A stretch of 51,084 nt of DNA from positions 1-51,084 of the forward strand of contig JBDKLD010000075.1 of the NCBI GenBank assembly GCA_039795715.1, given 5' to 3'. Of this stretch, positions 5,555 through 31,589 are shown one piece after another. Within the stretch, counting starts at the first letter, position 1. Each line of letters begins with the position of its first letter. Position numbers and translations under genes: made by a program. The notes below the pieces were generated by a model, which saw nothing but the letters and a program-made list of their open reading frames with translations, was not told the origin of the DNA and did no database searches. This stretch comes from Candidatus Parcubacteria bacterium (GTDB lineage Bacteria > Patescibacteriota > Minisyncoccia > Phycocordibacterales > UBA9973).

Positions 5555-5562
5555 CCTCACTA

Positions 5563-5634: not shown

Positions 5635-5676
5635 CATTTAAGATTCAATTGAATGACGAAAATTTCGTTTTATTCG

Positions 5677-6750
5677 CTATTTCAGAAGACCACGCAACGC
5701 AAGTGAGAGCGCCGGTAAATAATGCAGGCTTTCAGCTTCAGTCATTTCGGGAACTTCATCGATGAACTTGAGACCCTTGAACGGCTCCGGTGTTTTGACT
5801 TCTATATTGAGCGCGGTTTCGAGGTAGCCAGCGAGTCCGGGAATAGTTGCGCCAATACCAACAAGTGTGACCTGCCCGACTTTACACTCTTTTTCTTTGC
5901 GACAGTCGACATGCCAGTAAAGGAAAAGTTTTTCGGCGGCTTCAGTGATCTTGCGAAATTCGCCACGCAAAATACCGAGCACGCCATTTTTCGCTGTCAT
6001 TGAAATGCCTTCAAAGAAGAGTGATTCTTCGGCTGCATCATGCGCGATATCAAATTGGTCGACAATTTTCTCAACCCAAACATCGGTACCGGTTGGCACT
6101 TCTTCTTCTACGACGAGCGAGCCTTTGGATAAAATAGTGATGGATGTTTCGTGGGCTTTGATAGTAATGAAAATACTTGCCGCATCATCTTTGCCGACGA
6201 GTTCGGCAGTGACTTCGGTCGCGAGGCCAACATACTCGAGATTGAAATTTGTTTTCTTGGCAATTTCTTTCATGCGATCAATCGGATCTTGCGGGAGCAT
6301 CGTCACTGCGACTTTGGTATTATTTTTTTCTCTATATAAAATTTCAGTCTGCAGGACAAAGTTGTGACCATCGCCGAGAGATTTTTTGACTTCCCTCTCC
6401 ACTAAGTGTTCAAGAAGAAATGGGTCGCTCTCCGGTAATACCATTTCAAAAAATGTCGCCGTGCCGTCGGGAATCGCGACTTGGAGCGTTTTAGTTTTTG
6501 ATCGATTGTGGAGCGCCTTGAATATACTTGCTAGTTCCTGCGCGCGCTCTTCTTTGTCACCGCTATCAGTTTCGAGGTGCACTTCGCCAAAGCGAGTGAT
6601 GGAGAGCCCGTGCGGTGTACCAAGCGCTTCGACGTATGAAACAGCGTGGTCATCGAGCGCAACGCCGAGCGAGGCGCGCTTGCCGGTTTTTGGAAGATAA
6701 TTTTTATTTGATGATTTTTTCATATGATTTGTGTAAGGAACTTTTCTCAA
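5677..6750 (-). CDS. pilM: Type IV pilus assembly protein PilM-like (actin-like ATPase fold)
   Basis: 357 aa. The N-terminal LGVALDDHAVSYVEAL strand-loop and the C-terminal LPALSLALRGL are typical of PilM. The start may be the downstream Met at 6723. Confidence 0.6.
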   Translation of the reverse strand: MRKVPYTNHMKKSSNKNYLPKTGKRASLGVALDDHAVSYVEALGTPHGLSITRFGEVHLETDSGDKEERAQELASIFKALHNRSKTKTLQVAIPDGTATFFEMVLPESDPFLLEHLVEREVKKSLGDGHNFVLQTEILYREKNNTKVAVTMLPQDPIDRMKEIAKKTNFNLEYVGLATEVTAELVGKDDAASIFITIKAHETSITILSKGSLVVEEEVPTGTDVWVEKIVDQFDIAHDAAEESLFFEGISMTAKNGVLGILRGEFRKITEAAEKLFLYWHVDCRKEKECKVGQVTLVGIGATIPGLAGYLETALNIEVKTPEPFKGLKFIDEVPEMTEAESLHYLPALSLALRGLLK

Positions 6751-6765
6751 AATACTGTCGGACGT

Positions 6766-7110
6766 CTAGGTTACTGAAACTCCGGAGCGAACTTTTGTGC
6801 CCGGCTCCAGTGTTGTAAAGTTTTCGAGGTCGCCGGTGACGTAGAGAATCATGCCATTTGATTCGATCCCGCGAATCATGCGGGGCGCGAGGTTGGTGAT
6901 CACTGGCACTTGCTTGCCGACGAGCATGGAAATGTCAGGGAAATACTCACGGACACCAGAGAGAATCGTTCGTGGCATTTCTTCGCCAAGGTCGACTTTG
7001 TACATGACAAGCTTATCGGCGCCCGGCACGGCAGTCGCTTCGAGTATGGTGCCGATTTTTATTTCCAGCTTTTTTACATCGTCAATGGTTATTTTTTGTT
7101 CTTCGTTCAT
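6766..7110 (-). CDS. tRNA-binding domain protein (CsaA/EMAP-II-like OB fold)
   Basis: IKIGTILEATAVPGADKLVMYKVDLGEE ... VITNLAPRMIRGIESNGMIL matches the MetG C-terminal/CsaA tRNA-binding domain. Confidence 0.85.
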   Translation of the reverse strand: MNEEQKITIDDVKKLEIKIGTILEATAVPGADKLVMYKVDLGEEMPRTILSGVREYFPDISMLVGKQVPVITNLAPRMIRGIESNGMILYVTGDLENFTTLEPGTKVRSGVSVT

Positions 7111-7999: not shown

Positions 8000-8509
8000 G
8001 TGAAAAATTATAAAAGAAATCCCAACACCAAATGTGTTGTCTGTACAGCCCCTATTTACCGAAGACCGTCTGAAATTGAGCACAGCAAAAGACGAGTATT
8101 CTGTAGCCAAGCTTGCTATGGTATATATAATAGGAAGGAAATCCCGTGTCTAGTTTGTGGGGCATTAATTCTTGCTGGTGCAAACAAGAAAACGTGCAGT
8201 AGGGCATGCGCAAATAAGCACAGAGCTGGTATTTCATATAAAATAAACAGACCACGAGATAAAGTTAAAAGTCAGAGGAGTTTGAAAATTAGGTTATTGG
8301 AACAAAGGGGAAGATTGTGTGAAAGGTGTGGGTATAACAAGCAAGAGATTCTGGAAGTGCACCACAAAGATAGGGATAGAGGTAACAACGAGCTTGATAA
8401 TTTAGCATTAATTTGTCCGAATTGTCACGCAGAAGAGCATTATCTAAAAAATAGTTGGTTGACAAATATCGGGAGGCGTGGCGGAGTTGGTCTATCGCAC
8501 TCGTCTTGA
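8000..8509 (+). CDS. HNH endonuclease with N-terminal Cys-rich (zinc-ribbon-like) repeats
   Basis: GTG start. HNH core is CERCGYNKQEILEVHHKDRDRGNNELDNLALICPNCHAEEH. The last ~13 codons read into tRNA-Ser. Confidence 0.75.
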   Translation: MKNYKRNPNTKCVVCTAPIYRRPSEIEHSKRRVFCSQACYGIYNRKEIPCLVCGALILAGANKKTCSRACANKHRAGISYKINRPRDKVKSQRSLKIRLLEQRGRLCERCGYNKQEILEVHHKDRDRGNNELDNLALICPNCHAEEHYLKNSWLTNIGRRGGVGLSHSS

Positions 8510-8557
8510 AAACGAGAGTTCCGCAAGGGACCGTGAGTTCGAATCTCACCGCCTCCG
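8472..8557 (+). tRNA. tRNA-Ser (anticodon TGA), long variable arm
   Basis: GGAGGCG/CGCCTCC acceptor. Anticodon stem CTCGT/ACGAG carries loop CTTGAAA. Variable arm is AGTTCCGCAAGGGACC and T arm is GTGAG-TTCGAAT-CTCAC. Confidence 0.9.
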
Positions 8558-10021
8558 CAGAGTAATATCATCTTGATAAGATGCTATCAAATTGAAGGGA
8601 GAAACCATTGTAAACTCTAACTTTTTTTCGTTGAGTGTGCAGTTCTGAAGTAGGAAACCAAGAAGTTGGCGTTTTTCCTCTACTTCGGAACTCATAAAAA
8701 TCTCTTTCGCTCGTTTAGCTATATTTAACATCATGTTTGCGGTCAAATAGAACTGTTCATCGGCAGTCGAATGCTCTTGCATCTGCGACAGTATTTCTGC
8801 CTGCTTTTCTTTGTACTCTTTCAAATAGTTGTCATACAAATCATCTGTAATACGTCCGTCGAGGCGGTCTTCGTACATTTTTCGCAAACGGACATCGTAC
8901 TTGTCGTATTCGGCTTTGAGTTCGTTGAGGCTGGAAGTGTAAAACTTGTTTTCACTTTCGCCTATTTCCTTCAACCCGCTTGTTATGTCCTGTATTTGCT
9001 GGTCTGTGAGCTTCAGGCTGTCGAGTACAGGGTAAATCTGCTGTAGAAGCTCGTCCTCGGTCGCATTTGCCTTGTGAGGGCACTCTTTGTAGCCAGAACA
9101 GCCGTAGTAAACATACTTGCCCTTTTTGAGCTGTCCGCCAATCGTGCCTTCACAGTGAGCACAGGTAGCCAATCCTCTGAAGATAAAAGGTATTGAGGCG
9201 TATTTGGTCGGGACTTTGTTGTGCTGCAACATGACTGCTTGGCAGGCATCAAAAAGCTCTTTGGAAATGAGCCGCTTGTATCTATGCCAGTATCGGAGCT
9301 TGTGCGTTCGAGAGTACGCTTCGCCATAGTAAAAAGTGTCATTCAAGATTTTGAAAATCATTGCATGGTTTACTTTCTTGCCTGACGTGCCACGCAAGCC
9401 GAGGTTATACATTCGGTCTGCAAGCGTTTTTACCGACACGTCGCCTTTGGCGTATTCTTCAAAAATCTTAACGATGAAGTGAGCTTTTTCGTCTGGCACA
9501 ACATCAATTCTTCGACGACGTATTGGATTGTCATTGTAGATGCTTTTGCAGCCGAGGACAGGTGCACCTGTTACTTCGCCGTCTTCCCTCATCTTGTCGT
9601 GCTTACGCTTCACGTTGTCGCTCAACTGCAAGACGTAGCTTTTTGCGAACATCACGCCCATATCCCAGCGAAGAATGTCGGCACTGTTCGATTTCTTGTT
9701 GATGACAAGCCCTTCTCGGTAAAAATGTATTTCCACTTTTCCTGCCTGTCGTAGCTCTTCAAAAATAACTGACTCTTTGAAGCTACGCTGAAGACGGTCA
9801 ATCGTATCGACGACAACCGCGAGTGTTTCTTTTGATGCTTTTATTATCTCGATAATTTCTTGGAACTTTACTCTGTAGCCCTTCGTTGAGGACTCTTTGA
9901 GCTTGATAACTTTCCATTCTTCAAGCCCCTTCCCTTTGGAGTATTCCAAGATACGAGAAAGTTGCGCATCATTTGAGTCCTGATTTTTGTCGGACTCTCT
10001 GGCTAAAATGATTGCTTTCAT
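8546..10021 (-). CDS. Large serine recombinase (integrase)
   Basis: 491 aa. It has an N-terminal resolvase-type domain (MKAIILARESDKNQD, VVVDTIDRLQRS), a recombinase domain, the Cys cluster CAHCEG...YYGCSGYKECPH, and a C-terminal coiled coil. The last 4 codons and the stop lie inside the tRNA-Ser 3' end. Confidence 0.85.
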   Translation of the reverse strand: MKAIILARESDKNQDSNDAQLSRILEYSKGKGLEEWKVIKLKESSTKGYRVKFQEIIEIIKASKETLAVVVDTIDRLQRSFKESVIFEELRQAGKVEIHFYREGLVINKKSNSADILRWDMGVMFAKSYVLQLSDNVKRKHDKMREDGEVTGAPVLGCKSIYNDNPIRRRRIDVVPDEKAHFIVKIFEEYAKGDVSVKTLADRMYNLGLRGTSGKKVNHAMIFKILNDTFYYGEAYSRTHKLRYWHRYKRLISKELFDACQAVMLQHNKVPTKYASIPFIFRGLATCAHCEGTIGGQLKKGKYVYYGCSGYKECPHKANATEDELLQQIYPVLDSLKLTDQQIQDITSGLKEIGESENKFYTSSLNELKAEYDKYDVRLRKMYEDRLDGRITDDLYDNYLKEYKEKQAEILSQMQEHSTADEQFYLTANMMLNIAKRAKEIFMSSEVEEKRQLLGFLLQNCTLNEKKLEFTMVSPFNLIASYQDDITLRRR

Positions 10022-10094
10022 ACGTTGTTAGTTTTTTATTTGTAATTTTCTCGGAGCTTTCAAATCTACTGTGAAGTAGTTACTTTTGAAAACA

Positions 10095-11084
10095 CTAGAT
10101 GTCGTTAGGCAGCACTTGCCCATTTACAGTCAGGCTGTAGCTCTGAATGGTAGGAAATTGCAAGAGAGTATTTTTTATCTGCATTGATGACCCTGTGACT
10201 CCACAAGAACCGCCTGTCGAAGGTTCTTTTGAAATATCAAGGTAAGCAACGCCATTAGTTATCGTCAGTGAGTTTATTACTACTCCTTGTTGAATGAAAC
10301 TTCCATACCCTGCAGCACTCTCTGCTGCGGTCGGACCCGCGAAGAGTTTTTCTAGGCTTGCTCGTGCAACTGCAGATGTTTGTGGGATTGACCTATTAAC
10401 AGCGTAATTGATGCGACAATCTGGTAACCCAGGGTTAGAGACGGCATTGTAAAAATATACTTTTATATTCGTCGTAGAGGATTGCTGTTGTGTTGGGTTT
10501 GGTTGTGGCCAAGGAGTAATTGTAAACGGTGTAAGGACTTTGGTAGCAGCAATCTCGCCATCTGCTTGGGCGTCGCCAGCAAAATGAAGTGCAATTTGGT
10601 TTGTCGAAGGAGAGCTAGTAAGACTTGGGATTGTAGCGATAATCGGCCAGTGTTGCATTCCAACGGAGTAATCGCCAACTGTCTTTATTTTTACTGCAAC
10701 GCTTTTCGCGCTTCCGCTTGTATCTCTAACAACTACATCGCCCGCAGTTCCTTCAAATGCACCCCATTTTAGGCACGTTCCTGCTACAGCACTGGCAGTG
10801 TCGATGTAGCCAGTTATATTCAGCGGGAAAGAAACTGTGTGGTTTATTGTCGGCGAAGTAATGACAAGGCAGCTATTAGTTCCAGTTTGTGGTGTTGTTA
10901 TATTTGTTGCTTGCTGCGTATTCTGACCCTGATTGGTTGGCAAATTGTAATCTGGTGTTTCTGTGGAAGTAGGAGTTACTTTTGAACTCTGGCTCATATA
11001 ATAAGCTCCGCCCCCGACCGCCAAAACAGCTACGATAATCAAGATAACTGCGATTGGTGCAAAACCTTTATTTAGTGTTTTCAT
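10095..11084 (-). CDS. Secreted Gmad2 (Ig-like) plus GerMN domain protein
   Basis: N-terminal TM anchor. VSFPLNITGYID...WGAFEGTAGDVVVRD is Gmad2-like. The C-terminal KVYFYN...ASLEKLFAGPT...GVAYLDIS is GerMN-like. Confidence 0.6.
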   Translation of the reverse strand: MKTLNKGFAPIAVILIIVAVLAVGGGAYYMSQSSKVTPTSTETPDYNLPTNQGQNTQQATNITTPQTGTNSCLVITSPTINHTVSFPLNITGYIDTASAVAGTCLKWGAFEGTAGDVVVRDTSGSAKSVAVKIKTVGDYSVGMQHWPIIATIPSLTSSPSTNQIALHFAGDAQADGEIAATKVLTPFTITPWPQPNPTQQQSSTTNIKVYFYNAVSNPGLPDCRINYAVNRSIPQTSAVARASLEKLFAGPTAAESAAGYGSFIQQGVVINSLTITNGVAYLDISKEPSTGGSCGVTGSSMQIKNTLLQFPTIQSYSLTVNGQVLPNDI

Positions 11085-11117
11085 ATAGCTTGAATGGTAC
11101 TACTTTTTGTGGTTTTA

Positions 11118-12254
11118 TCAACGCTCCGACGAGTGCATATCTGTTGGTAACTTATACGGCGCAAAGCGGGTCAAATTGTCCTTTATCTGCTTTACCCAGC
11201 CGTGATATGCCTTGCCTGAAATCTCATCGAGAAATGGTAGGTCGTCTGCTATTCGATACCATGTTCGGGTCGTGGCGTATCGCTCGATGATTGCCCTTGT
11301 TCCCCGTATGCCTTCCTTGCTCATTACCCTCAAACCGAGCAGGTACAGAGCTTCTTTCGGACTTACCTTTGGCTTGTTTTTGAAGATAGCGTCGAGCGTT
11401 TTGGTCGGACTGCTTTCAACATCGAAAAGAAATAGATTTTTGCCAGTGATGAGTTCATTCCAGTAATCGAGCAGCACTTTTTGGCAAAGGTCTTTATTGA
11501 ACACGTCTTTGAACGTCGGGTTTTCATTGAAGCCGAGTCGTTTCAGAATAGCGTTCAATTTTACCTTCTTTGCGAGCCGTGCTTCGATGCGCAAAATCTC
11601 TTTCTTTTCTTTTTTCGTCAGTGTTTCAAAGAGCGTAAGCTGAACTGCATTTTGGTCTTTGTCTATTGCTCGCTTCTCTGGTTTTTTCAGGTCTTGCACC
11701 TTGTCATAGATGACGAGCGAGTGTGAGTTCGTGTAGAACTGAAGCGAGTGCCCGTTGTTCCTGAAACTATCTCGGTTCAAATCCATTTTCTTGCTCACAT
11801 CAATTTTGTGAAGTTCGTTAATGACAAAGCTCGAAGTGTAGCCGTCAGCCAGTTCGATGTTCTTTGCTGGATGAAAAGCCGACACGCTGGCTTTCCGTAA
11901 AACTTCTTTCTGTACTTCAACTCTCATCGTCAGCATCGCATCGTAGAGAGCTGAAATCACTTTTTCAAAATCCTTTCCCTCAACTTCCTCAACATTGTTT
12001 CCGTGAAGCATCTTGGCAACAGAGAACTCTATTTTGAGCGGTATTTCATTACCGTTTTTTGTCGGTCTTTTCATCAGGGTCAATCGTGGCTTATACCTTT
12101 CGTTTTTCTTGTCCGTCGAGGTCGGATTGTTCACGCATTTGACGAGAAAGTTCCCAGCCATTTTCAGAATGTTTGCGTTCGGCGTAAACGCATTTGGGTC
12201 GAGCTTATATGACCCTCTCGGTATGGTTAGTATTACTGTGTCCAGCATATTCAT
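11118..12254 (-). CDS. Rolling-circle replication initiator, filamentous-phage gene II / CRI-like
   Basis: MLDTVILTIP parallels the MIDMLVLRLP start of f1 gpII. LKIEFSVAKMLHGNNVEEV parallels VEIKASPAKVLQGHNVFG. ILRIEARLAKK parallels LVRFEARIKTR. The comparison is from my memory of the f1 sequence. Confidence 0.55.
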   Translation of the reverse strand: MNMLDTVILTIPRGSYKLDPNAFTPNANILKMAGNFLVKCVNNPTSTDKKNERYKPRLTLMKRPTKNGNEIPLKIEFSVAKMLHGNNVEEVEGKDFEKVISALYDAMLTMRVEVQKEVLRKASVSAFHPAKNIELADGYTSSFVINELHKIDVSKKMDLNRDSFRNNGHSLQFYTNSHSLVIYDKVQDLKKPEKRAIDKDQNAVQLTLFETLTKKEKKEILRIEARLAKKVKLNAILKRLGFNENPTFKDVFNKDLCQKVLLDYWNELITGKNLFLFDVESSPTKTLDAIFKNKPKVSPKEALYLLGLRVMSKEGIRGTRAIIERYATTRTWYRIADDLPFLDEISGKAYHGWVKQIKDNLTRFAPYKLPTDMHSSER

Positions 12255-12558
12255 TACTTCTTTTATTTTGATAAGACAAAATCTCTTCTGCTTTTTCGAT
12301 AATCGCTCGCTCTATTTCTGAAGCCATATTCCTGCGTATCGGATGAAAAACATTGAAGTTTTTGCCGTTCAGATTTTTGGTCGGATAGGTTATGCGGTAG
12401 CCCGTTCCGTCGAGCTTGGTATGCACGCCGATTGAGCCGAGGTACAAACTGCCGTCCACAACGACGCTTGCGATTGCGACCAGCCCATTATTCGGCTTGA
12501 TTGGTATTACTTGTATTTCCGTTATTTGCATACAGATGCGGATTAACTCTTTTATCAA
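12205..12558 (-). CDS. SpoVG-like DNA/RNA-binding protein
   Basis: MQITEIQVIPIKPNNGLVAIASVVVDGSLYLGSIGVH resembles the SpoVG N-terminus. The true start may be that Met at 12531. The 3' end overlaps the Rep gene by about 50 nt. Confidence 0.5.
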   Translation of the reverse strand: MIKELIRICMQITEIQVIPIKPNNGLVAIASVVVDGSLYLGSIGVHTKLDGTGYRITYPTKNLNGKNFNVFHPIRRNMASEIERAIIEKAEEILSYQNKRSNEYAGHSNTNHTERVI

Positions 12559-12664
12559 CCTTCAGCAACAGACCGAAAAAACCGAGTACATTGTTTCGCT
12601 CAATTTCGTTGAGGTCTTTCATCGACCAGTCCGTATTTTCTTTTTTGCTTTTTCTTGCGGACAT

Positions 12665-12693
12665 AAAAAACCCTGAAGGTTGTATGTTCAGGG
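12665..12693 (-). terminator. Rho-independent terminator after the 12730..13956 gene
   Basis: On the minus strand, CCCTGAA-9 nt-TTCAGGG is followed by TTTTTT. Confidence 0.6.
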
Positions 12694-12729
12694 TATGCTT
12701 ATGCCTATTTACAAAAGTTTACAAACTTT

Positions 12730-13956
12730 CTATTTCTTCAAATAAGCCTTATTTATATTGATATTTTTGGTACTCACGACCAAGAAATCTTTGATTTTCG
12801 TGTCCTGTGCCACAGTCTGATTGACGGCTTTACCTGCTTGGTAAACCTTGTTTGCAGATACTTTGTCGTCGAATGAATAGCCCCAATCTTCGAGCACTTC
12901 GTCGCTTGCCCACACCTTGCGCTTGTCTTTGAAGAGCGTCCGCAATAGCTTATGAGGGTCACTTTCTTCTTTTTTGCCTATGAGGATTTTTTCGTTATTG
13001 AAATAGAGTATTCGGCTTTCTTCATCAAAACGAGGGTCGGATTTTGCAGTAGGAGCATCTGCTTGAAGTAGCTCGGCAACAAGGTATGAGTGTACTCGCT
13101 GGGCGTAGCGCTTATAGTCAGCTACACGGAAAATAACCAAATCATTGTCCGATGCTTCGCCTGAACGTATCTTTTCCATTTCGCCGAGAACGCCGATAAA
13201 ATTGAGCCAAGTCCATCGGGCAGAAGGGTCACTGGCCACAGTTGCCCTCAATTCGTCGGTTATTTCGTCAGGTTCAAAGACAAGTTTTTGAACAAGCGGC
13301 ATTTCGTGCCAAGCGCCCCACGGTTCAACTTGCCCTTTCCGTTCGAGCTTCCTTTTCTCTTCGTCAATTTTTTCATAAGTAGGCGAAAAGGTGTAGTTGC
13401 CGTATATGTTTGTTACCTTTTTGCCGTCGTCCTCAAACTCTTTGATTGCCGCTTCGTGGCCGCTTGCTCGGATTTGTCTGGCAACGCCGAAAAGGTCACT
13501 GTCGAGTGCATAGAGCGGGTTAGACGAAAGTATATGTCCGTTTAATTGGTCGTGAACTTCTTTCAAAGCACTGGCAATGCGGTCGTAATCATTTTGATAA
13601 ACTTCAACGGCTTTTATGGCTGGCTTCGCTTTTTCCGCCATCTTTTCAGCCGCTTTTTGAGCTTTTTCCAATGCTGGCTTGTATTTGTCTATAATTTTTT
13701 GCGCAATTTCAGTGACCCGCTCGGCTGATTTCCGAAGCTCGGTCATTGCTTGCGAGTTCATCAGTTCGTATACCTTGCTTGCAGTTTGCCGCTGTTTTTC
13801 GAGGGCTGTAATGAAAGGTTTGGTTTCCGTCAGCTCTTGGACTGTCTTTATGTATTCGGCAAGGCCGTGAAAAAAGCCCCATTTATCCTGTTGGTCTATA
13901 AAGCTCTTATACTGCTGCTCAATGATTTTGAGAGCTTTTTCATTACTGTTTTCCAT
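12730..13956 (-). CDS. Hypothetical protein with N-terminal coiled coil
   Basis: Long ORF. The ATG at 13956 (MENSNEK...) has AAGGG 11 nt upstream and is preferred over the GTG at 13980, which lies inside a hairpin. No motif recognised. Confidence 0.55.
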   Translation of the reverse strand: MENSNEKALKIIEQQYKSFIDQQDKWGFFHGLAEYIKTVQELTETKPFITALEKQRQTASKVYELMNSQAMTELRKSAERVTEIAQKIIDKYKPALEKAQKAAEKMAEKAKPAIKAVEVYQNDYDRIASALKEVHDQLNGHILSSNPLYALDSDLFGVARQIRASGHEAAIKEFEDDGKKVTNIYGNYTFSPTYEKIDEEKRKLERKGQVEPWGAWHEMPLVQKLVFEPDEITDELRATVASDPSARWTWLNFIGVLGEMEKIRSGEASDNDLVIFRVADYKRYAQRVHSYLVAELLQADAPTAKSDPRFDEESRILYFNNEKILIGKKEESDPHKLLRTLFKDKRKVWASDEVLEDWGYSFDDKVSANKVYQAGKAVNQTVAQDTKIKDFLVVSTKNININKAYLKK

Positions 13957-13990
13957 TACATTTTTACCCTTACACTGCACGCTGTGCAGT

Positions 13991-17692: not shown

Positions 17693-19204
17693 TTATTTAT
17701 GGCTAATAAGCTCACTTAAGTATGATTTAACTTTTTTCATATCAATCGATTCACCGGATTTCAACTTTGATTCAGCATCAATCGAAAAATTAATTTTATA
17801 GTGTTCTTTCATTTCAAAATATGAAGAAAGCAGGCCGGGACCAAATCCCCCACAGAGCGCGATGTCATTAATACCTTTTTCTAAAAGTGTATCGATCTTT
17901 TTCTCTATATTGGTCTTTGCATCCTGTTTGCCAGCACCTCGGCTGTTGTCAATCATCAAAAACGTCTTATGTTTCAAGACTTCCTCGACAAATTCCGGAT
18001 CATCCACCAAATGGAATTCCTCGTCCGAGAGAGGAATATCAACCAAGAAAAACTTATTGGCATACTTGAGTACTTTCAAGTGGTCGCTAGTTAAATCATT
18101 TAGTCGAATATATTTAACATATGGTAACTTTTCTCTAATGAGCGCAACGTCTTTGAGAGGGTCGGTTGAAAATTTGAATGTAAAATGGAGAATTGGCACG
18201 AACCCTTCGAAATATTCGGAAGCTTTGCAGATTGCTTCAATTTTCTTCAATTCATGCGGATCGTTGAGAATGTGCGAATCGGCATACACACCGAGGCAAA
18301 TTTTGAGCAATGGATCTTTCTTTAAGCCCGCCATGAAATTGCCGATTTCAGTGACCTGCTCCGGTGACTCAACATAGGTGAATTGATAAAAGTAATTGCT
18401 CTCATCTTTTCCAAAAAAGTGCTTGAATTTTTGTCGCTTTGTTTCGAAGTAACGTCGATTGTAACTGTTACTTTCAATGACCAAAGGAATGCGGTCAGTA
18501 ATGGTAATGCCTAATCTCGCAATTTCAGAAACCTTTGAAGGATTGTTTGTAATCAACTTTATTTCTTTGACGTTCAAGTAATCAAGAACTTTTTTTACCC
18601 AAGAATATTCTCGGTAGTCTGGTTTGTGACCTAAAAGAATATTGGCTTCATGAGTATCATATCCTTTATCCTGCAGGATGTAAGCTTTAATCTTTTCATG
18701 TAAACCAATACCGCGCCCTTCTTGGCGAAGATAGATAAAGACTCCATTGCCACTTTCTGAGATCATAGAGAGTGACCGGTCTTTTTGTTCTTCGCAGTCA
18801 CATCGATAACTATGGAATGTATCCCCTGTCAGACACTCGCTATGGACTCGTACGAGAACTGGTTTACTGGTATCGAGGTTTGGTGTTTGTAAAAAAATAA
18901 TCTCTTCACCTTTTTTCTGATTCCAAACATTGAAATAAAATGTGCCCTGCTTTGTAGGAAGAAGGGTGCCGACAATATCGTTTTCTGGTATATCCCTTGT
19001 TTCTACTTTGCCTGTGCGTATTGCATCAACAGGAACGTTATAGAGATCAGACAATAATTTTGCCTGACTAAGAGTGACCTCTTTCTTTCCGTTCTCAATC
19101 AGGGTTAACGTAGGGCGAGAAATACCCAGCCGTTTTGCTATCTCATTTTGAGATAAATCCGCTGCTTTTCGGAGGCGGGTAAGCAATTTAGGACTATTTT
19201 TCAT
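17693..19204 (-). CDS. Three-domain fusion: XRE-type HTH + GTP cyclohydrolase II (RibA) + phosphoribosylanthranilate-isomerase-like TIM barrel
   Basis: The HTH is LSQNEIAKRLGISRPTLTLIENGKK. RibA blocks are VRVHSECLTGDTFHSYRCDCEEQ, YLRQEGRGIGLHEKIKAYILQDKGYDTHEAN and LITNNPSK. TrpF-like blocks are LKICLGV, FLMIDNSRGAGK, IALCGGFGPG and NFSIDAESKLKSGESIDMKKV. Confidence 0.75.
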   Translation of the reverse strand: MKNSPKLLTRLRKAADLSQNEIAKRLGISRPTLTLIENGKKEVTLSQAKLLSDLYNVPVDAIRTGKVETRDIPENDIVGTLLPTKQGTFYFNVWNQKKGEEIIFLQTPNLDTSKPVLVRVHSECLTGDTFHSYRCDCEEQKDRSLSMISESGNGVFIYLRQEGRGIGLHEKIKAYILQDKGYDTHEANILLGHKPDYREYSWVKKVLDYLNVKEIKLITNNPSKVSEIARLGITITDRIPLVIESNSYNRRYFETKRQKFKHFFGKDESNYFYQFTYVESPEQVTEIGNFMAGLKKDPLLKICLGVYADSHILNDPHELKKIEAICKASEYFEGFVPILHFTFKFSTDPLKDVALIREKLPYVKYIRLNDLTSDHLKVLKYANKFFLVDIPLSDEEFHLVDDPEFVEEVLKHKTFLMIDNSRGAGKQDAKTNIEKKIDTLLEKGINDIALCGGFGPGLLSSYFEMKEHYKINFSIDAESKLKSGESIDMKKVKSYLSELISHK

Positions 19205-20242: not shown

Positions 20243-20263
20243 GGTCACAATTTGTGACCTTAG
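20239..20263. repeat. 25-bp palindrome, copy 3 (spans ORF6N stop codon, inverted centre)
   Basis: ctaaggtcacaatttgtgaccttag. Confidence 0.9.
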
Positions 20264-20316
20264 AGCTATGGCCAGGGCTTTTCAGTGACAATCAGGATTT
20301 TGCTACAATACAATGC

Positions 20317-21090
20317 ATGTCCTCCCTCCTCACCTCCCTCAAAAAAGAGCTCCGTGCGCTCGGCACACCGGAACGAGCACGGCTTTGCGCTTGGTTTTTT
20401 AAAACTGCGCCCGGACAATACGGCGAAGGTGACATTTTCATCGGCATAACTGTTCCCGCACAAAGAGCAACCGCAAAAAAGTATGGCAACCTTTCCCTCT
20501 CTGACATAGAAAAACTTCTTCAATCACAAGAACATGAATTCCGCCTCACAGCACTCATCCTTTTGGTCGCCAAATATAAGCAAGCTGAGCGCTCCAACTC
20601 GAAAAAATCCCAGAAACAAATTTTCTCCCTATACCTCAAAAACACAAAATCGGTGAACAATTGGGACCTCGTTGATTCAAGCGCAAGCTACATCGTCGGA
20701 ACATACCTAGCCACATGCCCAGCAACCGAAAGAATGCGCACTCTCATGCGCCTGGCCAAATCAAAACTCCTTTGGGATAGACGAATAGCGATGATCTCCA
20801 CGCTCGCCTTCATCAGCAAAGGACACCACGCAGAAGCCATCGCCATTGCAACCATTCTCGTCGACGATAAGCACGAACTAATACAGAAAGCCGTTGGTTG
20901 GATGCTTCGAGAGATAGGCAAGAGAGCTTCACTAGAGGCCGAGCTCTCTTTTTTGCATAAATACGGTGCAACTATGCCTCGAACCACCCTCCGATATGCT
21001 ATAGAAAAATTCCCAAAACACGAGCGTCAGATGTATTTGGCGCTTCGGCACACGCTTTCTCGCACCACATCGAAAAAGAGCCCCAAATAG
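20317..21090 (+). CDS. DNA alkylation repair protein (AlkD-like HEAT-repeat family)
   Basis: FFKTAPGQYGEGDIFIGI, NNWDLVDSSASYIVG, WDRRIAMISTLAFI and QKAVGWMLREIGK. Met at 20317 (MSSLLTSLKKEL) is preferred over 20254. Confidence 0.75.
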   Translation: MSSLLTSLKKELRALGTPERARLCAWFFKTAPGQYGEGDIFIGITVPAQRATAKKYGNLSLSDIEKLLQSQEHEFRLTALILLVAKYKQAERSNSKKSQKQIFSLYLKNTKSVNNWDLVDSSASYIVGTYLATCPATERMRTLMRLAKSKLLWDRRIAMISTLAFISKGHHAEAIAIATILVDDKHELIQKAVGWMLREIGKRASLEAELSFLHKYGATMPRTTLRYAIEKFPKHERQMYLALRHTLSRTTSKKSPK

Positions 21091-21190: not shown

Positions 21191-21448
21191 ATGGCACCAA
21201 AAGCAAATTCCGCATTTATGAAGCCAATGAACCTTAGCGAAGAACTCGCTGAAGTCTGTGGCAAGAAGGTCATGCCTCGCTCAGAAGTCGTCAAAGCTCT
21301 CTGGGTCTACATCAAGAAGCACAATCTTCAGGATCCAAAGAACAAGCGTAACATCATTGCAGATGATAAACTCAAGCCAGTCTTCGGTGGTAAGGCAGTG
21401 GTCAACATGTTTGAAATGACCAAGCTTGTTTCAAAACACCTTTCGTAA
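21191..21448 (+). CDS. SWIB/MDM2 domain protein
   Basis: LSEELAEVCGKKVMPRSEVVKALWVYIKKHNLQDPKNKRNIIADDKLKPVFG is a typical SWIB domain. Confidence 0.8.
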   Translation: MAPKANSAFMKPMNLSEELAEVCGKKVMPRSEVVKALWVYIKKHNLQDPKNKRNIIADDKLKPVFGGKAVVNMFEMTKLVSKHLS

Positions 21449-22099: not shown

Positions 22100-22171
22100 G
22101 GCCCCGTCGTTCAATGGATAGGACAAGAGTTTGCGGAATTCTAGATGAAGGTTCGATTCCTTCCGGGGTCA
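22100..22171 (+). tRNA. tRNA-Arg (anticodon GCG)
   Basis: GGCCCCG/CGGGGTC acceptor and GTTC/GGAC D stem. Anticodon stem AGAGT/ATTCT carries loop TTGCGGA. T arm is GAAGG-TTCGATT-CCTTC. Confidence 0.85.
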
Positions 22172-22182
22172 CAGATTTTAAT

Positions 22183-22208
22183 AAAAATACCTTTAAGAAG
22201 GTATTTTT
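22183..22208. terminator. Bidirectional hairpin between tRNA-Arg and the folD stop
   Basis: AAAAATACCTT-taag-AAGGTATTTTT (11 bp). It overlaps the folD stop codon. Confidence 0.65.
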
Positions 22209-23013
22209 ATTTCCCCCATAACACATTCCAAAAAAGACTGGCCACTGTTATTGGTCCGACACCGCCCGGGACTGGTGTCATTAATGAAGCTTTTTCAACG
22301 CACGCCGGATGAATATCTCCAGCCAGCTTCCCGCTTTGTTCACTCGTACCAGCATCAATCAGGATAACGTCTTTTTTAATCACGTTTGGCGTAATGAAAT
22401 GAGGTTCTCCAACGCCGGTAATAATAATGTCGGCATTTTGTATCTCTGCCAGACGTTCGACTATGGACGTGCTTCTCCTTATTTGAATATAGGGAATTTT
22501 TTCTTTGGCTAACATTGCCGCGACCGGTGCGCCAACGAGCCTTCCGTTACCCACAACAAGAATTCTTTTGTTTTCTAAATTGACATTGTTAAGCTTAATA
22601 ATTTCCCAAACTGCCTTTGCTACAGGAGGTACTCGGTCGCCTTCACCCATTCGATATGTATCCATGGCAGCTGCACTCAAGAGATCAATATCTTTATCTA
22701 AAGGAATAGCAGAAATAATTTGCTCCGTATCAAGACCAAGAGGCAACGGCAACTGCACGACGATACCATCATAGGTATCATCCAGGTTGTTTATAAAGAT
22801 TACTGCATCTTCCGTGGTGCGGACTTCTTTCTTAAACCTTGTCGTTGAAATACCGACACGCTCAGCAAAGCGTTCTTTCATTTTCACAAACTGCTCACTG
22901 GCAGTATTATCACTGAATAGAATGAAGGCTACTTTTTTCATGGGCAAATTTTTAAGCTTCAACTTGAGCTCGTTCTCCATTTCATTCGCAATTTTATTGC
23001 CATCAATAATCAT
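22207..23013 (-). CDS. folD: Bifunctional 5,10-methylene-THF dehydrogenase / methenyl-THF cyclohydrolase
   Basis: 268 aa. VGNGRLVGAPVAAMLA and TPVPGGVGPITVASL are typical FolD blocks. Confidence 0.88.
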   Translation of the reverse strand: MIIDGNKIANEMENELKLKLKNLPMKKVAFILFSDNTASEQFVKMKERFAERVGISTTRFKKEVRTTEDAVIFINNLDDTYDGIVVQLPLPLGLDTEQIISAIPLDKDIDLLSAAAMDTYRMGEGDRVPPVAKAVWEIIKLNNVNLENKRILVVGNGRLVGAPVAAMLAKEKIPYIQIRRSTSIVERLAEIQNADIIITGVGEPHFITPNVIKKDVILIDAGTSEQSGKLAGDIHPACVEKASLMTPVPGGVGPITVASLFWNVLWGK

Positions 23014-23017
23014 ATTA

Positions 23018-23653
23018 TTAATTATATCTCTGAATCACCTTTTCAAACTCTTCAATCGAGTACACAAAGTGTAGCCAGTCATATTCCTTCGGATCCTTTA
23101 CTGAAGTACAGAGTGTTTTCATTTTTTCTTTGATGAGGTGCTCCCAGTCTGTACCGTTTTTTGTCTGAAAGAATATAAGCGGTGTCATCTTTATATTATG
23201 TCCCCCATATTTATTCATTCCATCATTCACAACATTTTCATGGAAAACAATAGTCTCCTCTAGTTCAGTGCCGTCCCCACCAAGCGGGCAGACTACGGCA
23301 ATATCGCCAGAAACAACCACCTTCAATCGCTGAAAGATATCTTCTGAAACATCTGTAAATGATGCTTCCTTTACTCTTTCCCATAAACCATCATGCTGTT
23401 GTTGTGGCACGCCGATGTTCAAGAATGGAGAAAGACTATTCTCGGTAATATATTTATTTGCGGTATCACTTGTTGCAGACATTGCTCCCCCACTGTAACC
23501 GCCATGAATAATACCGTAGCCACTTTTGAGCAGTACTTCTGTAAACTGTTCGATTGCTTTGTATTCTTCGCTTGATGGATCTATTGTAGATTTGCCGAGT
23601 ACTGACGCAAAACGATTCGCACCCGATTTTTCTTTCATTTCTTGTAATGTCAT
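23018..23653 (-). CDS. LOG/TIGR00730-like Rossmann protein (nucleotide 5'-monophosphate N-glycosidase family)
   Basis: IIHGGYSGGAMSA and VVCPLGGDGTELEE resemble the GGGxxGxM and PGGxGTxxE LOG motifs. Confidence 0.55.
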   Translation of the reverse strand: MTLQEMKEKSGANRFASVLGKSTIDPSSEEYKAIEQFTEVLLKSGYGIIHGGYSGGAMSATSDTANKYITENSLSPFLNIGVPQQQHDGLWERVKEASFTDVSEDIFQRLKVVVSGDIAVVCPLGGDGTELEETIVFHENVVNDGMNKYGGHNIKMTPLIFFQTKNGTDWEHLIKEKMKTLCTSVKDPKEYDWLHFVYSIEEFEKVIQRYN

Positions 23654-23655: not shown

Positions 23656-24492
23656 TTATATGGCAATGGGAAAATTGATCTTCTCCCCGTGCTGATAATT
23701 AGTAAATGTTGTATCTGTGAACTTCCAATTGAGTATACCTGTAAAACTTTCTGTGATAGCGGCGGGATAACTGGAATTTTCTACCTCCAATAACTTCTTC
23801 GCTCCTTCAATATGGTTTTCATAAAGCTCTACCTGTCCGAACATGCCTATTACTTTTCCCTCCTCGTAACCTGTCTCTAAACAAATTAGGTGAAGGAGCA
23901 AGGCGTGCTGAGCAAAGTCATTTGGCAAACCGAGACATACATCTGCACTTCGCTGATAAAATATCAGGCAAAGTTCATCTCCGTATTTAAGTATCTGAAA
24001 AGCAAATGGGCACGGGGGTATCGACTGCTGATCGATGTCTTTCGGATTCCATTGTGATACAACGAGCCTTTTGCTTTCTGGGTTTTCTTTAATTTTCTCA
24101 ATTAGCAACTTAATTTGATCTACTCCTTGGTCCGTGTAATCGCCTATTCCTTTGTAATCAGCTCCAAAATTTCGCCATTCGAATCCATATGTAGGGCCAA
24201 GATCGTTGGGATTTTCTGATTGATTACTTTGCCACTGATCCCAGAAGTGACAGCCGCGATCGGTCAGCCATTTTTTATCTGTGTAGCCCTTGAGATAAAA
24301 TTCAGTTTCCACTCTCATGCTTTTCTGCGGCATTTGACGAAGTGTACATAGTGGGAATCCAAGCTTCATGTCGTGTTCAATTGTTTTTCCCAAAAGACTG
24401 TATGCTGAAATTCCTGATCGAGTTAGCCTCAAGAAACCTTCATTTAAACATTCTTTAATTATTTCTTTGTATTGTGTATCGAAGTTTTTCAT
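23656..24492 (-). CDS. Thymidylate-synthase-fold enzyme, predicted (d)CMP C5-hydroxymethylase/methylase rather than ThyA
   Basis: ThyA blocks are present: TRSG, FWDQW, DLGPTYGFEWR, IPPC and YQRSADVCLGLP. However, LGLPNDFAQH replaces LGLPFNIASY, putting Asp at the Asn177 position. Cys-His becomes Cys-Pro, and GDTHLY becomes GQVELY. Confidence 0.65.
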   Translation of the reverse strand: MKNFDTQYKEIIKECLNEGFLRLTRSGISAYSLLGKTIEHDMKLGFPLCTLRQMPQKSMRVETEFYLKGYTDKKWLTDRGCHFWDQWQSNQSENPNDLGPTYGFEWRNFGADYKGIGDYTDQGVDQIKLLIEKIKENPESKRLVVSQWNPKDIDQQSIPPCPFAFQILKYGDELCLIFYQRSADVCLGLPNDFAQHALLLHLICLETGYEEGKVIGMFGQVELYENHIEGAKKLLEVENSSYPAAITESFTGILNWKFTDTTFTNYQHGEKINFPIAI

Positions 24493-24496: not shown

Positions 24497-25258
24497 TTAT
24501 CTACTTGGCTTCTTTGCCTGCATTACTAAGGTGAATGGAATCATTTTAGATTTACTTTTTGAGTACGTGCTTGAGAAAACGTGTTTCTTTTCTTTGTCGT
24601 TATTCGTCGTAATCTCATGGAATGCCGTCACATCGAAACCTGCTTTTTTGAGAAGTTGGAACCAAGTACTCGGCTTAGCCTGAAATGATTGAATGTTATA
24701 GCCAGTTTGATTCCAATTGAATCGCACTGTCGGTTTTTCCTGATTGTATGAGTTCTGAAATACTACTTTACCGTCATGCTCATCTACTACCCTGACCAAA
24801 TAGTGATCCCAGCTAAAGGTGAACGTGCCGCCTGGTTTGAGAACTCTGAATACTTCCCCCAAAGTCTTCTCAATGTCTTCGGACCAGCCGATTCCATACA
24901 CACTGAATACTTCATCGAACGTGTTTTCGGAAAAAGGAAAGTCTTTCGACATATCAGATGTTTGGAAAGAAATTTCCTTGCTTCCGTACTTCTTTTTCGC
25001 CTCATTAATGCCGTTTTGGGAGATATCGATACCGATATATTCTTTTGGGTTTTTCTTAGCGACAAACGGTACTGATTCTCCTATACCACAACCGATCTCC
25101 AATAATGACTTGCCCGTGATAGTTAATAGTTTAGGAGTTAGGTCTGAGCCTGACGAATGGAGTCCCCACGAAGGAAGAAAGGTTCCTCCTGAATGGTAAT
25201 CCCCTGAGTAAAGGGAGTTCCAAGCCTTGGCGTTATTGGTTTTTACCTTGTTTTTCAT
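24497..25258 (-). CDS. Class I SAM-dependent methyltransferase
   Basis: SLLEIGCGIGES (motif I), IGIDIS and LKPGGTFTF. It is the first gene of the tight four-gene operon. Confidence 0.75.
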   Translation of the reverse strand: MKNKVKTNNAKAWNSLYSGDYHSGGTFLPSWGLHSSGSDLTPKLLTITGKSLLEIGCGIGESVPFVAKKNPKEYIGIDISQNGINEAKKKYGSKEISFQTSDMSKDFPFSENTFDEVFSVYGIGWSEDIEKTLGEVFRVLKPGGTFTFSWDHYLVRVVDEHDGKVVFQNSYNQEKPTVRFNWNQTGYNIQSFQAKPSTWFQLLKKAGFDVTAFHEITTNNDKEKKHVFSSTYSKSKSKMIPFTLVMQAKKPSR

Positions 25259-25328
25259 GTCTATAGTTTACAACTTTAATTAAGTATTGTACCGTTTTTT
25301 AGTCATATTTTAAGTTATCCACAGTTTT

Positions 25329-25346
25329 ACCTTTATTTATAAAGGT
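25329..25346. promoter_or_regulatory. Palindrome in the divergent promoter region (candidate operator)
   Basis: ACCTTTAT-tt-ATAAAGGT lies between the methyltransferase operon and the divergent TrmB-like regulator. Confidence 0.3.
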
Positions 25347-25393
25347 TATGGTATAGTAATTGTGTGTCCGATTTTCCGACATATTAAAATTAT

Positions 25394-26140
25394 ATGAACC
25401 AAATCACTGTTTTACTGCAAAAATATGGGTTTAGCGAACGCCATTCAAAGGTATATCTTCACCTTCTCTCAAGCTTAGAGGATACGGTACTTGGGGTAGC
25501 TAAAGCCACCAATATACCTAGGACGACCGTATATACAATCCTGACTGACCTTAAGGACCAAAACCTCGTATCCACCTTTAGGAAGAACAAGGTTCAGTTC
25601 TGGACGCCAGAAAGTGTAAATCAGCTCCAAGTTAATCTCGAGCAGAAGCAGGAAGTCGCTGACTCCCTCGTTCCCCTTTTACGTGACATCACGAGCAAGT
25701 CCCACCTCGGGGATTCTTCGATCCGTATGTTTACCGGAAAAGAAGGCTTGAAGATCGTTTGGGAAGACATCATTTCCTGCCTCGAAGCCGAGAAGCCGCC
25801 TTTTGTATATGCGATCTCTCATACGGACCTGTATTCTATTTTGCCGAAATACTTTCCAGCGTGGATTGAGAGACGCAGAAAGTCTAAAGTTTTTGCAAAA
25901 CTGATTGTCCATCATGGGCACCAGCACCTTCGTTCTGATAGCGGGCAGGAAGTCCGTGCCATGCCAGAAAAATATATTTTTACAGGCGATCTTACTATCT
26001 ATGGGAAAAAAGTAGCCATCTTTGTATTTGAAAAAGACCGATATGAATCGATTATTATTGACTCTCCTGCTTTCGCACAAATGATTCAGGGAATATTTAA
26101 TTACACCTGGGATAATTTGGGAGAGACGGCAAAGATTTAA
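25394..26140 (+). CDS. TrmB-family transcriptional regulator (wHTH + C-terminal sensor domain)
   Basis: LLQKYGFSERHSKVYLHLLSSLEDTVLGVAKATNIPRTTVYTILTDLKDQNLV is a TrmB-type winged helix. Confidence 0.75.
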   Translation: MNQITVLLQKYGFSERHSKVYLHLLSSLEDTVLGVAKATNIPRTTVYTILTDLKDQNLVSTFRKNKVQFWTPESVNQLQVNLEQKQEVADSLVPLLRDITSKSHLGDSSIRMFTGKEGLKIVWEDIISCLEAEKPPFVYAISHTDLYSILPKYFPAWIERRRKSKVFAKLIVHHGHQHLRSDSGQEVRAMPEKYIFTGDLTIYGKKVAIFVFEKDRYESIIIDSPAFAQMIQGIFNYTWDNLGETAKI

Positions 26141-30944: not shown

Positions 30945-31589
30945 TTATAGTCTTTCCAAGATGCATAGATGGGCCAAAGCACCTGCTTCTTCGCAGTTTG
31001 TCATTTTCAAACCAGCTTTATTTGCCAACTCTTCCAATTCATCTTTAGTAAACTGCTCTGAAGTATAGGCTCCAACGCTTTCATCGAAAGTTACATAGCC
31101 ATCCTTTACTTTTTTTACAGGAACCCCGATTTGCTTGTACATTTCTAGCCTTTCATTTAGAGCTTTTTCCGAATAGACACTGACAATAATCTTTCCATTT
31201 TCTTTAGTTACTCTTTTCGCTTCTTCAAGAGCCTTAACTTTTTTGTCCGCAAAATTAACCAGTGTCATCATTAGAACAGTACAGTCGAAAGTATTTTCCT
31301 TGAAAAAAAGGTTGGTTGCATCGGCTTGTTGTATATCTACCGATGGATACTCTTTGAGATTTTCTTTTGCGTCTTTGATGGCTTGTGGGTCATTATCGAT
31401 TCCTGTAATGTCGCTTGTAATATTTAGTAATGAAATAATGTTGCGACCATTACCGCAACCTACATCTAGAACCTTAGCATTATTGGAAATGTGGCTGCGT
31501 AAATACTCTTTTTCTTTCTCGAAGAGGACTTGGAAGCCAGGTGATGGATTTTCTTCAATTCGTTCCCAAAAATCTATATTTGCTGACAT
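30945..31589 (-). CDS. Class I SAM-dependent methyltransferase
   Basis: VLDVGCGNGRNIISL motif I, ITGIDNDP and GKIIVSVY. Confidence 0.75.
   Translation of the reverse strand: MSANIDFWERIEENPSPGFQVLFEKEKEYLRSHISNNAKVLDVGCGNGRNIISLLNITSDITGIDNDPQAIKDAKENLKEYPSVDIQQADATNLFFKENTFDCTVLMMTLVNFADKKVKALEEAKRVTKENGKIIVSVYSEKALNERLEMYKQIGVPVKKVKDGYVTFDESVGAYTSEQFTKDELEELANKAGLKMTNCEEAGALAHLCILERL

Follow-up and report, generated by a model that had tools for sequence, protein, structure and literature searches.

Cytosine-specific homologues of thymidylate synthase (TS) are already known, and TS homologues that work alongside an N-glycosidase and a methyltransferase have been described before. In TS, the substitution N177D gives an enzyme for deoxycytidine monophosphate (dCMP) whose product is 5-methyl-dCMP (PMC8670742, PMC13326640), and in metagenomes no positions set cytosine-modifying TS homologues apart better than 177 and 147 (PMC8670742). 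In hydroxymethylases, an acidic residue (Asp or Glu) stands three positions ahead of the catalytic Cys, the C-terminal lid is lost and Trp83 is replaced (PMC6400193, PMC13326640). In the T4 dCMP hydroxymethylase (dCH, gp42) this acidic residue is Asp145, and D145N abolishes activity (PMC6400193, PMC13326640), while the 5-hydroxy-dCMP synthases of the RB69 gp48 type carry D169N (PMC13326640). The preference of MilA for cytidine monophosphate (CMP) comes from Ala176 (Ser167 in E. coli ThyA) and Lys133' (Arg126'), with Ala176 as the main determinant (PMC5175136). The mildiomycin and bacimethrin pathways are both built on a TS homologue that works with a nucleotide N-glycosidase, an arrangement that is well established (PMC4081090). 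In this study, we analyzed a ThyA-fold paralog encoded in a 51,084-nucleotide stretch of a Candidatus Parcubacteria genome (contig JBDKLD010000075.1), referred to below as the window. We propose, with a probability of roughly 0.5, that this gene encodes a cytosine-specific offshoot of TS, which would catalyze the committed step of a regulated pathway to a free, methylated 5-substituted cytosine base.

23656..24492, minus strand: 278-aa paralog of the ThyA fold, active site of the cytosine type (Pfam, PDB alignments, family alignment)

The plus-strand frame over this interval is riddled with stops, and the open reading frame (ORF) lies on the minus strand. Its product matches Pfam PF00303 (Thymidylat_synt) with an E value of 3.4e-67, residues 7-277 covering model positions 2-265 of 266. 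Solved ThyA structures align with the whole protein at ~40% identity (HMMER against PDB chains), and its identity to canonical ThyA is 40-47%. The end-to-end alignment with TS described in the original prediction is thus confirmed, and the strings quoted there (TRSG, FWDQW, DLGPTYGFEWR, IPPC, YQRSADVCLGLP, LGLPNDFAQH and GQVELY) all occur in the product, with the catalytic Cys inside IPPC. Key residues were placed by three independent alignments, one made with HMMER against PDB chains, one with MAFFT from 120 homologues plus E. coli ThyA, and one with hmmalign. The E. coli ThyA reference was identical to PDB 1aob at 264 of 264 positions, and the T4 gp42 reference was a 100% match to T4 records. 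All three alignments place Asp, not the base-reading Asn, at E. coli position 177, Asn at Phe176, Pro at His147 directly after the catalytic Cys, and GQVELY over GDTHLY, with Gln at Asp205 and Glu at His207. The Asp, the Pro and the GQVELY string had been predicted from the sequence. The prediction had also relied on a switch of TS from deoxyuridine monophosphate (dUMP) to dCMP by N177D, which is borne out by two of the studies cited above (PMC8670742, PMC13326640), and on Asp at the equivalent of Asn177 in cytosine-specific enzymes, which T4 gp42, MilA and BcmA indeed carry.

In E. coli numbering, the signature of the paralog comprises Cys146, Pro147, Ile143, Lys126', Ser167, Asp169, Asn176-Asp177, Gln205, Glu207 and Tyr209; Cys161 of the product corresponds to position 146 and Asp192 to position 177. 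The phosphate-binding, catalytic-Cys and folate-lid residues are all present (MAFFT alignment), including a C-terminal ...INFPIAI lid of the TS type. We compared 60 close-family sequences with 39 canonical ThyA sequences recovered by the same search. Asp177, Pro147, Lys126', Gln205 and Glu207 were found in 60/60 family members, and Asn, His, Arg, Asp and His at the same positions in 39/39 canonical sequences. Further changes fixed in the family are Phe176 to Asn, Ile79 to Phe, Leu143 to Ile, Tyr181 to His, Ser180 to Gln and Lys48 to Arg. The eleven replacements are essentially fixed in the 60 members, and none occurs in the 39 canonical sequences. With the residue set fixed on both sides in this way, the change of the active site is not due to chance. 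The family nevertheless keeps the TS residues Arg21, Glu58, Trp80, Trp83, Tyr94, Arg127, Cys146, Arg166, Ser167, Asp169 and Tyr209, and its C-terminal tail reads ...P-I/V-A-I/V. Asp177 and Pro147, the cytosine state at both discriminating positions, strongly indicate that the paralog would read cytosine, not uracil.

Automated annotation makes this gene a divergent but genuine TS, converting dUMP to thymidine monophosphate (dTMP), and several observations agree with that assignment. The product exceeds the cut-off of NCBIfam TIGR03284 'thymidylate synthase' (199.1 bits against 108.35) as well as the Pfam threshold, its phosphate, Cys and lid residues are complete, and JGI labels its relatives thymidylate synthase. 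No other thyA, thyX, folA or tmk was found among ORFs of at least 120 aa in the window, which carries little weight because the window covers only part of the genome. However, no family member retains Asn177, His147 or His207, and N177D is known to move specificity to dCMP. The product also stays below the cut-offs of seven of the eight NCBIfam ThyA equivalog models that it matches (e.g. NF002497, 221.5 against 327), and its gene neighbourhood is unlike that of canonical ThyA in the candidate phyla radiation (CPR). A genuine TS is therefore very improbable. The original prediction, that the protein is probably no housekeeping TS, is in line with the active site, the phylogeny and the gene context.

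The published rules also bear on the group that would be transferred to C5. The residue three before Cys is Ile in the paralog and Ile or Val in 60/60 members, so that the Asp/Glu of the hydroxymethylases is missing; the MilA core sequence recovered from the PDB alignment reads D-V-A-C, DSKR, MRAND and S-D-V, and T4 reads D-F-M-C. Unlike the hydroxymethylases, the paralog retains Trp83 and the C-terminal lid. Asp169 is present in the paralog and in all relatives, and the Asn169 of the 5-hydroxylases is absent. Since there is no water-activating acidic residue and the lid is intact (Trp80, Trp83, Asp169, tail), a methyl product appears most likely. The (d)CMP C5-hydroxymethylase or methylase of the original prediction is supported in this form, with a methyl product favoured over a hydroxymethyl product at about 60:40.

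We also considered a CMP 5-hydroxymethylase like BcmA or MilA. Such an enzyme would form hydroxymethyl-CMP, from which a LOG-fold enzyme encoded by the adjacent gene (described below) would release 5-hydroxymethylcytosine for O- or N-methylation to a bacimethrin-like base, with no folate reducing equivalents spent. The Lys126' of the paralog is also present in MilA and BcmA, and the logic of three enzymes, a TS homologue, an N-glycosidase and a methyltransferase, is common to the bacimethrin genes, with the first two also paired in MilA/MilB. The roles of the bacimethrin genes bcmA, bcmB and bcmC were reportedly given by Cooper et al. in 2014 as CMP hydroxymethylase, N-glycosidase and methyltransferase. 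On the other side stand the Ile/Val in 60/60 members at the position where T4 dCH and MilA have Asp, whose loss in T4 D145N inactivates the enzyme, and the retention of Trp83 and of the lid, which seal the TS site for hydride transfer. Moreover, the best 60 PDB matches of the paralog do not include MilA, and in the tree a long distance separates the clade from both MilA and T4 dCH. We regard a hydroxymethylase as a possible but unlikely identity for this enzyme.

With regard to the sugar, Glu207 replaces His207, a contact of the deoxyribose 3'-OH, and Lys126' replaces the phosphate contact Arg126'; of these contacts, Tyr209 (3'-OH) alone is kept. Of the residue pair behind the CMP preference of MilA, Lys126' matches Lys133', but Ser167 is found in place of Ala. 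At position 93 (Val93 in E. coli, corresponding to Ser94 in T4), the paralog and most members have Thr, and a subclade at 59% identity has Ile. The sugar pocket (Lys126', Glu207), together with the LOG-type N-glycosidase partner, points to the ribonucleotide CMP as substrate and to release of the free base. We hold with moderate confidence that the substrate would be a ribo- rather than a deoxyribonucleotide. The Lys at Arg126', the Gln at Asp205 and the operon setting go beyond what the original prediction had noticed.

A search of 5.8 billion proteins returned ~60 relatives at 53-93% identity, after which identity dropped to 40-50%. In a scan of one genome per GTDB species, the family was confined to metagenome-assembled genomes of Patescibacteria (CPR), bar two other labels. 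Labels among them are Paceibacterota, Nomurabacteria, Campbellbacteria and 'Saccharibacteria'; of the two exceptions, one carries the label Gammaproteobacteria and the other 'bacterium' only. When 1.84 billion cluster representatives were searched exhaustively with HMMER, 10,788 matched the TS family. Among the best 150 of these 10,788 clusters (50% identity), Asp177 occurs in 19, and only 2 have Lys126 and Glu207 as well; the remaining Asp177 clusters among the best 150 keep Arg126 and His207, as phage dCMP methylases do.

In a neighbour-joining tree (BLOSUM62 distances, no bootstrap, rooted on T4 gp42), the cassette family of 57 sequences is monophyletic. Its sisters are two sequences, one of them from a traced contig that also encodes terminase and VapE, and the next branch is a clade with Phe176, Lys126 and Glu207. 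Canonical ThyA forms a separate large clade, and MilA and T4 gp42 fall far outside the cassette family. The family thus does not cluster inside canonical ThyA, a test that the original prediction had proposed. Judged by its sequences, the lineage is a separate offshoot of canonical-type ThyA, outside the MilA/BcmA and T4 gp42 lineages.

The traced outgroup contig (Logan SRR15221285) is of interest in its own right. P0060 and P0061 are the closest outgroup of the family, and P0061 lies between genes for a terminase small subunit, a VapE-like primase and an SNF2 helicase. This contig probably belongs to a phage of CPR bacteria with modified cytosine.

For the cassette itself, the IMG/VR viral contigs scanned with the family alignment contained no relative, and the best protein match to the paralog in GenBank phages was at 36.6% identity, with none above 37%. 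A phage origin of the cassette is therefore unsupported. The PADLOC defence models matched neither the paralog nor the LOG-like protein, and the methyltransferase gave only a generic match to the mad2 methyltransferase domain; the reading of the cassette as a known defence system found no support from these models.

Four minus-strand genes follow one another with gaps of 2-4 nt, in the order methyltransferase, ThyA paralog, LOG-like protein and FolD. The other features of the operon and its borders are as follows.

24497..25258, minus strand: class I S-adenosylmethionine (SAM)-dependent methyltransferase, 253 aa, first gene of the operon (Pfam Methyltransf_11/25/31, E 1e-17 to 1e-20)
23018..23653, minus strand: LOG-fold protein, 211 aa (weak sequence matches; fold from AlphaFold2 (AF2) and Foldseek)
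22207..23013, minus strand: FolD (methylene-tetrahydrofolate dehydrogenase / methenyl-tetrahydrofolate cyclohydrolase), 268 aa, last gene, 4 nt past the LOG gene
25394..26140, plus strand: TrmB-family winged-helix regulator, 248 aa, divergent from the operon (Pfam PF01978 TrmB, 5.8e-13)
25259..25393, no strand: divergent control region, 135 bp, between the regulator and methyltransferase genes
22100-22172, strand opposite to the operon: tRNA-Arg, beyond the operon end

The LOG-like protein contains the motifs HGGYxGGAM (here HGGYSGGAM) and P-L-GGDGTELE, in which the spacing of Pro is off the LOG pattern PGGxGTxxE by one residue. Its sequence matches are weak: PF18306 (SLOG cluster4) at E 0.0026 and 17.8 bits, where the cut-off is 26.3, and the PDB LOG 5wq3 at E 0.18. 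The AF2 model, built with 48 homologues, has a mean confidence (pLDDT) of 96.2, and its top Foldseek matches are the type-II LOG 5zi9, LOG 5its/5zbl and the nucleosidase PpnN 6gfl (TM 0.67-0.73, probability 1.00). The LOG motifs GGxGTxxE and GGxxGxM are invariant in the 48 homologues, with G125, G126, G128, T129, E132, R93 and R109 among the invariant residues. The LOG-like proteins form a distinct family of ~110 and stand beside the ThyA paralog wherever the context was traced. Based on the modelled fold, we propose that this protein may act as a nucleoside-5'-monophosphate N-glycosidase that frees the modified base.

The AF2 model of the methyltransferase has a pLDDT of 86.9. Its nearest Foldseek neighbours are uncharacterised small-molecule methyltransferases, RebM, AtmM, MitM, TleD and METTL6, a generic set with no substrate clue among them. 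We found ~23 orthologues at 54% identity or more; the few with a source name carry a Parcubacteria label, and the traced ones lie in cassette loci. We propose a modified pyrimidine base or nucleotide as its substrate. The window contains a second Methyltransf_11 methyltransferase (30945-31589, minus strand, 214 aa), which is 25-33% identical to the shorter cassette methyltransferases of four other loci (L001, L006, L012, L019).

FolD matches Pfam THF_DHG_CYH_C (4e-36) and THF_DHG_CYH (2e-20) and NCBIfam FolD models (~1e-50); its link to the cassette is confined to this window and to L005, the closest relative. Orthologues of the TrmB-family protein, at 69-96% identity, hold the same divergent position in L003, L005, L007, L008, L011 and L019, and this protein is a probable ligand-responsive regulator of the cassette. 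The spacer between the divergent genes is 132-135 bp long in 7 loci and contains conserved palindromic blocks: TGTC-N10-GACA, (C)CTTTATAAATAAAG(G) and TACAAT-N11-(A/G)TTGTA. A promoter-like site lies at 25313-25286 on the minus strand; when the operon was scanned for promoters and terminators, the sites were no more numerous than in shuffles. Rfam over the whole window returned tRNAs only, with no tetrahydrofolate (THF), ZTP or other riboswitch near the operon.

We then compared the gene context across assemblies. In 14/14 related loci from other assemblies, the ThyA paralog adjoins a LOG-like orthologue and a Methyltransf_11-type gene, in two gene orders. A sister clade with Lys126, Pro147, Phe176-Asp177, Asn205 and Glu207 has related neighbours. 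In one of its members (L016, JBBTXR010000001.1, Patescibacteria), positions 4712-6004 encode a 430-aa fusion of a bona fide LOG domain (PF03641, PGAVGTFHE) with a methyltransferase (MTS-type, NPPF), and this gene overlaps the start of the Lys126/Asp177/Glu207 ThyA paralog. This fusion is a Rosetta-stone case for three activities in one pathway. The NPPF motif of the fused methyltransferase presumably hints at N-methylation of an amino group. A second locus of the sister clade (L021) has a Methyltransf_11 gene and TrmB regulators, and in a third (L020) the upstream protein has an HD-type motif, as judged by eye.

Canonical ThyA of CPR bacteria has different neighbours. In L014, L017, L018 and the L014-like L015, dihydrofolate reductase (DHFR) follows ThyA directly, with Tmk, a kinase and dCMP deaminase alongside. 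Overall, DHFR is adjacent in 5/5 loci with a His207-type ThyA and in 0/19 loci with the Glu207 type, and none of the 19 Glu207-type loci has DHFR, Tmk, the kinase or dCMP deaminase within ~5 kb.

These neighbourhoods bear on a further possibility, a dCMP C5-methyltransferase of the Xp12 type, which would place 5-methylcytosine in DNA or lead to dTMP via deamination of 5-methyl-dCMP or 5-methyl-dCTP. The TS homologue of the Xp12-like phage FMYAK-P1 (L024) reads N-V-P-C-P and Y-D and has His181, so that it has Asp177, Pro147 and His181 in common with the paralog, and Xp12's own TS homologue makes 5-methyl-dCMP in a published experiment. The paralog also keeps the deoxyribose-type Ser167 and Tyr209, the nearest traced outgroup (P0061) lies on a contig with phage-type genes, and another Patescibacteria has an Asp177 ThyA in an operon with dCMP deaminase, DHFR and Tmk (L023). 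However, every member has lost Arg126' and His207, which contact the phosphate and the deoxyribose. A deoxynucleoside monophosphate kinase, deaminase, DHFR or Tmk is near 0/19 loci, yet these genes accompany the His207-type enzymes. The obligatory LOG-type N-glycosidase and small-molecule-type methyltransferase would destroy or decorate the nucleotide, not channel it to DNA, and viral sequences offered neither a relative in IMG/VR nor a phage record above 37% identity. Taking both sides into account, we consider an enzyme of the Xp12 type improbable.

The operon in L023 deserves a description of its own. Positions 3894-7080 of this contig (ENA k141_2061524, Patescibacteria) encode dCMP deaminase, a kinase, ThyA, DHFR and thymidylate kinase. 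The ThyA has Asp177 and Tyr147, is otherwise canonical (Arg126, Leu143, His207) and nests within canonical CPR ThyA, with P0082, P0097 and P0098 as relatives. From its gene content, the operon looks like cellular dTMP synthesis via 5-methyl-dCMP, a route that has so far been reported from Xp12-type phages. Another locus (L001, JGI Ga0558118_00770) encodes, at 10360-12010 and 4 kb from the cassette, a second, very divergent 321-aa TS homologue of the MilA family (PDB 5b6d, E 1e-21). This protein combines the Asp of the hydroxymethylases before Cys and the CMP-type pair Lys126/Ala167 with Asn177, and adjoins a Methyltransf_3 O-methyltransferase. By its residues, it would be a UMP 5-hydroxymethylase-like enzyme.

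Several observations weigh against the proposed pathway from CMP to a free methylated base. Ser167 is retained where MilA has Ala as the chief determinant of CMP preference, and a deoxyribonucleotide substrate is still compatible with it. Thr at position 93 and Asn176 resemble Ser94 and Asn178 of T4 dCH. The closest outgroup pair has Arg126, Leu143, Ile147, Asn176-Asp177 and Glu207, and the one contig traced for it carries phage-type genes, so Glu207 by itself is no proof of ribose specificity. The LOG-like protein misses the Pfam LOG (PF03641) threshold, and the methyltransferases of different loci are only 22-30% identical to the one in the window, so their chemistry may differ. Finally, no DHFR is nearby, though a methylase would need one. 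The resemblance to T4 dCH, the 0/19 Glu207-type loci with DHFR and an operon that holds FolD rather than DHFR all fit a hydroxymethylase.

Our proposal of a cytosine C5-methylase acting with a base-releasing partner leads to the following scheme, in which sequence and gene context suggest the activities of the paralog and its partners. FolD would supply 5,10-methylene-THF. The ThyA paralog, presumably a dimer by analogy, would hold the cytosine 5'-mononucleotide via Arg21, Lys126', Arg127' and Arg166. Cys161 (146 in E. coli) would attack C6, and Asp192 (177) would read and protonate N3/N4. The one-carbon unit would pass to C5, and with a closed lid and no water-activating carboxylate, hydride transfer would yield 5-methyl-CMP and dihydrofolate. 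The LOG-fold enzyme would then cut the N-glycosidic bond, as LOG and PpnN do, giving 5-methylcytosine and ribose 5-phosphate. The SAM methyltransferase would add a second methyl group before or after base release, and the divergent TrmB-type regulator would control the operon. The final product may serve as an antimetabolite or as a signal. In its most specific form, a Patescibacteria-specific regulated trio (CMP C5-methyltransferase, LOG-type N-glycosidase, SAM methyltransferase) would make a novel free dimethylated cytosine-derived base, whose role would be that of an antimetabolite or of a diffusible signal, in the style of cytokinins, between symbiont and host; we put this forward only tentatively.

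The CPR-restricted lineage, its own active-site solution, the LOG-type glycosidase partner and the LOG-methyltransferase fusion are new, and we found no description of them in the searchable literature. The same literature yielded no report of a natural CMP C5-methyltransferase of the ThyA fold, of a 5-methyl-CMP synthase, or of a combination of LOG, TS homologue and methyltransferase. If our proposal is true, the family would represent a third independent route of the ThyA scaffold to cytosine specificity, with a new solution for the sugar pocket (Lys126'/Glu207), and the paralog may be the first natural CMP C5-methyltransferase. A regulated operon for a modified free pyrimidine base, kept in such minimal genomes, would imply that the molecule is of value for the lifestyle of these bacteria, e.g. 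in competition, host manipulation or signalling. Because annotation pipelines call the gene thymidylate synthase (JGI names, TIGR03284), metabolic reconstructions of Patescibacteria would wrongly credit these genomes with dTMP synthesis by its product.

The rest of the window looks like a segment of a CPR chromosome, with genes for L19, RuvX, RuvA, RuvB, Fpg, SpoU, PolA, TsaE, type IV pilus proteins and SWIB, and a GC content of 36-47%. Beyond the operon, past tRNA-Arg, lie genes for an 85-aa SWIB/MDM2-domain protein (21191-21448, plus strand) and an AlkD-type DNA alkylation repair protein (20254-21090, plus strand). A 503-aa protein (17693-19204, minus strand) has an unusual architecture, in which an N-terminal HTH_3 (XRE-type) DNA-binding domain is joined to GTP cyclohydrolase II and a long C-terminal part. 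At ~8000-13980, an apparent integrated mobile element lies beside tRNA-Ser (8472-8558); its genes encode an HNH endonuclease (8000-8509), a large serine recombinase (8546-10021), a Germane-domain protein and a Phage_CRI-type replication initiator (11118-12254). ARAGORN called a tRNA-Stop with anticodon TTA at 38974-39047 on the minus strand, which we rejected: its loop CUUUUAA and G27-A43 mismatch read better as tRNA-Lys(UUU). The element scores 70 bits as a tRNA in Rfam, and the call is probably a tool error and no suppressor.

Among described systems, MilA/MilB and BcmA/B/C resemble the scheme proposed here in pathway logic: a cytosine mononucleotide is modified at C5 and its base freed, with decoration by a methyltransferase in the case of bacimethrin. 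MilA and BcmA, the latter compared by its published description, also share with the ThyA paralog the Asp at Asn177 and the Lys at Arg126'. In contrast to MilA, the paralog has Ile and not Asp before Cys, Ser and not Ala at 167, Glu and not His at 207, and a retained tail; MilA lies outside both its best 60 PDB matches and its clade in the neighbour-joining tree. The putative N-glycosidase of the cassette has the LOG fold, whereas MilB and BcmB belong to another family, and the cassette is hosted by Patescibacteria, the Mil and Bcm genes by Streptomyces or Clostridium.

The dCMP methyltransferase of the Xp12 type shares Asp177, Pro147, His181 and the lack of an acidic residue before Cys, and its methyl product is the one predicted here. 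It keeps Arg126' and His207, where the paralog has Lys126' and Glu207, and its gene lies in a phage genome with a pyrophosphohydrolase, dCMP deaminase and DHFR, while the paralog lies in a cellular chromosome with LOG, methyltransferase and FolD genes. T4 gp42 has in common with the paralog the Asn-Asp at 176-177, a hydroxyl residue at position 93 (Ser94 against Thr) and a cytosine substrate, predicted in the case of the paralog, but it is distant in sequence, with Asp145 before Cys, Val for Trp83 and no C-terminal tail. Canonical ThyA (EC 2.1.1.45) shares the full-length fold, Cys146, Glu58, Tyr94, Arg21, Arg127, Arg166, Asp169, Trp80, Trp83 and the C-terminal lid; in CPR bacteria it is linked to DHFR and Tmk, a link that the paralog does not have. 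Finally, although its sequence similarity lies under the Pfam LOG thresholds, the LOG-like protein has the fold (TM ~0.7) and the GGxGTxxE and GGxxGxM motifs in common with LOG and PpnN.

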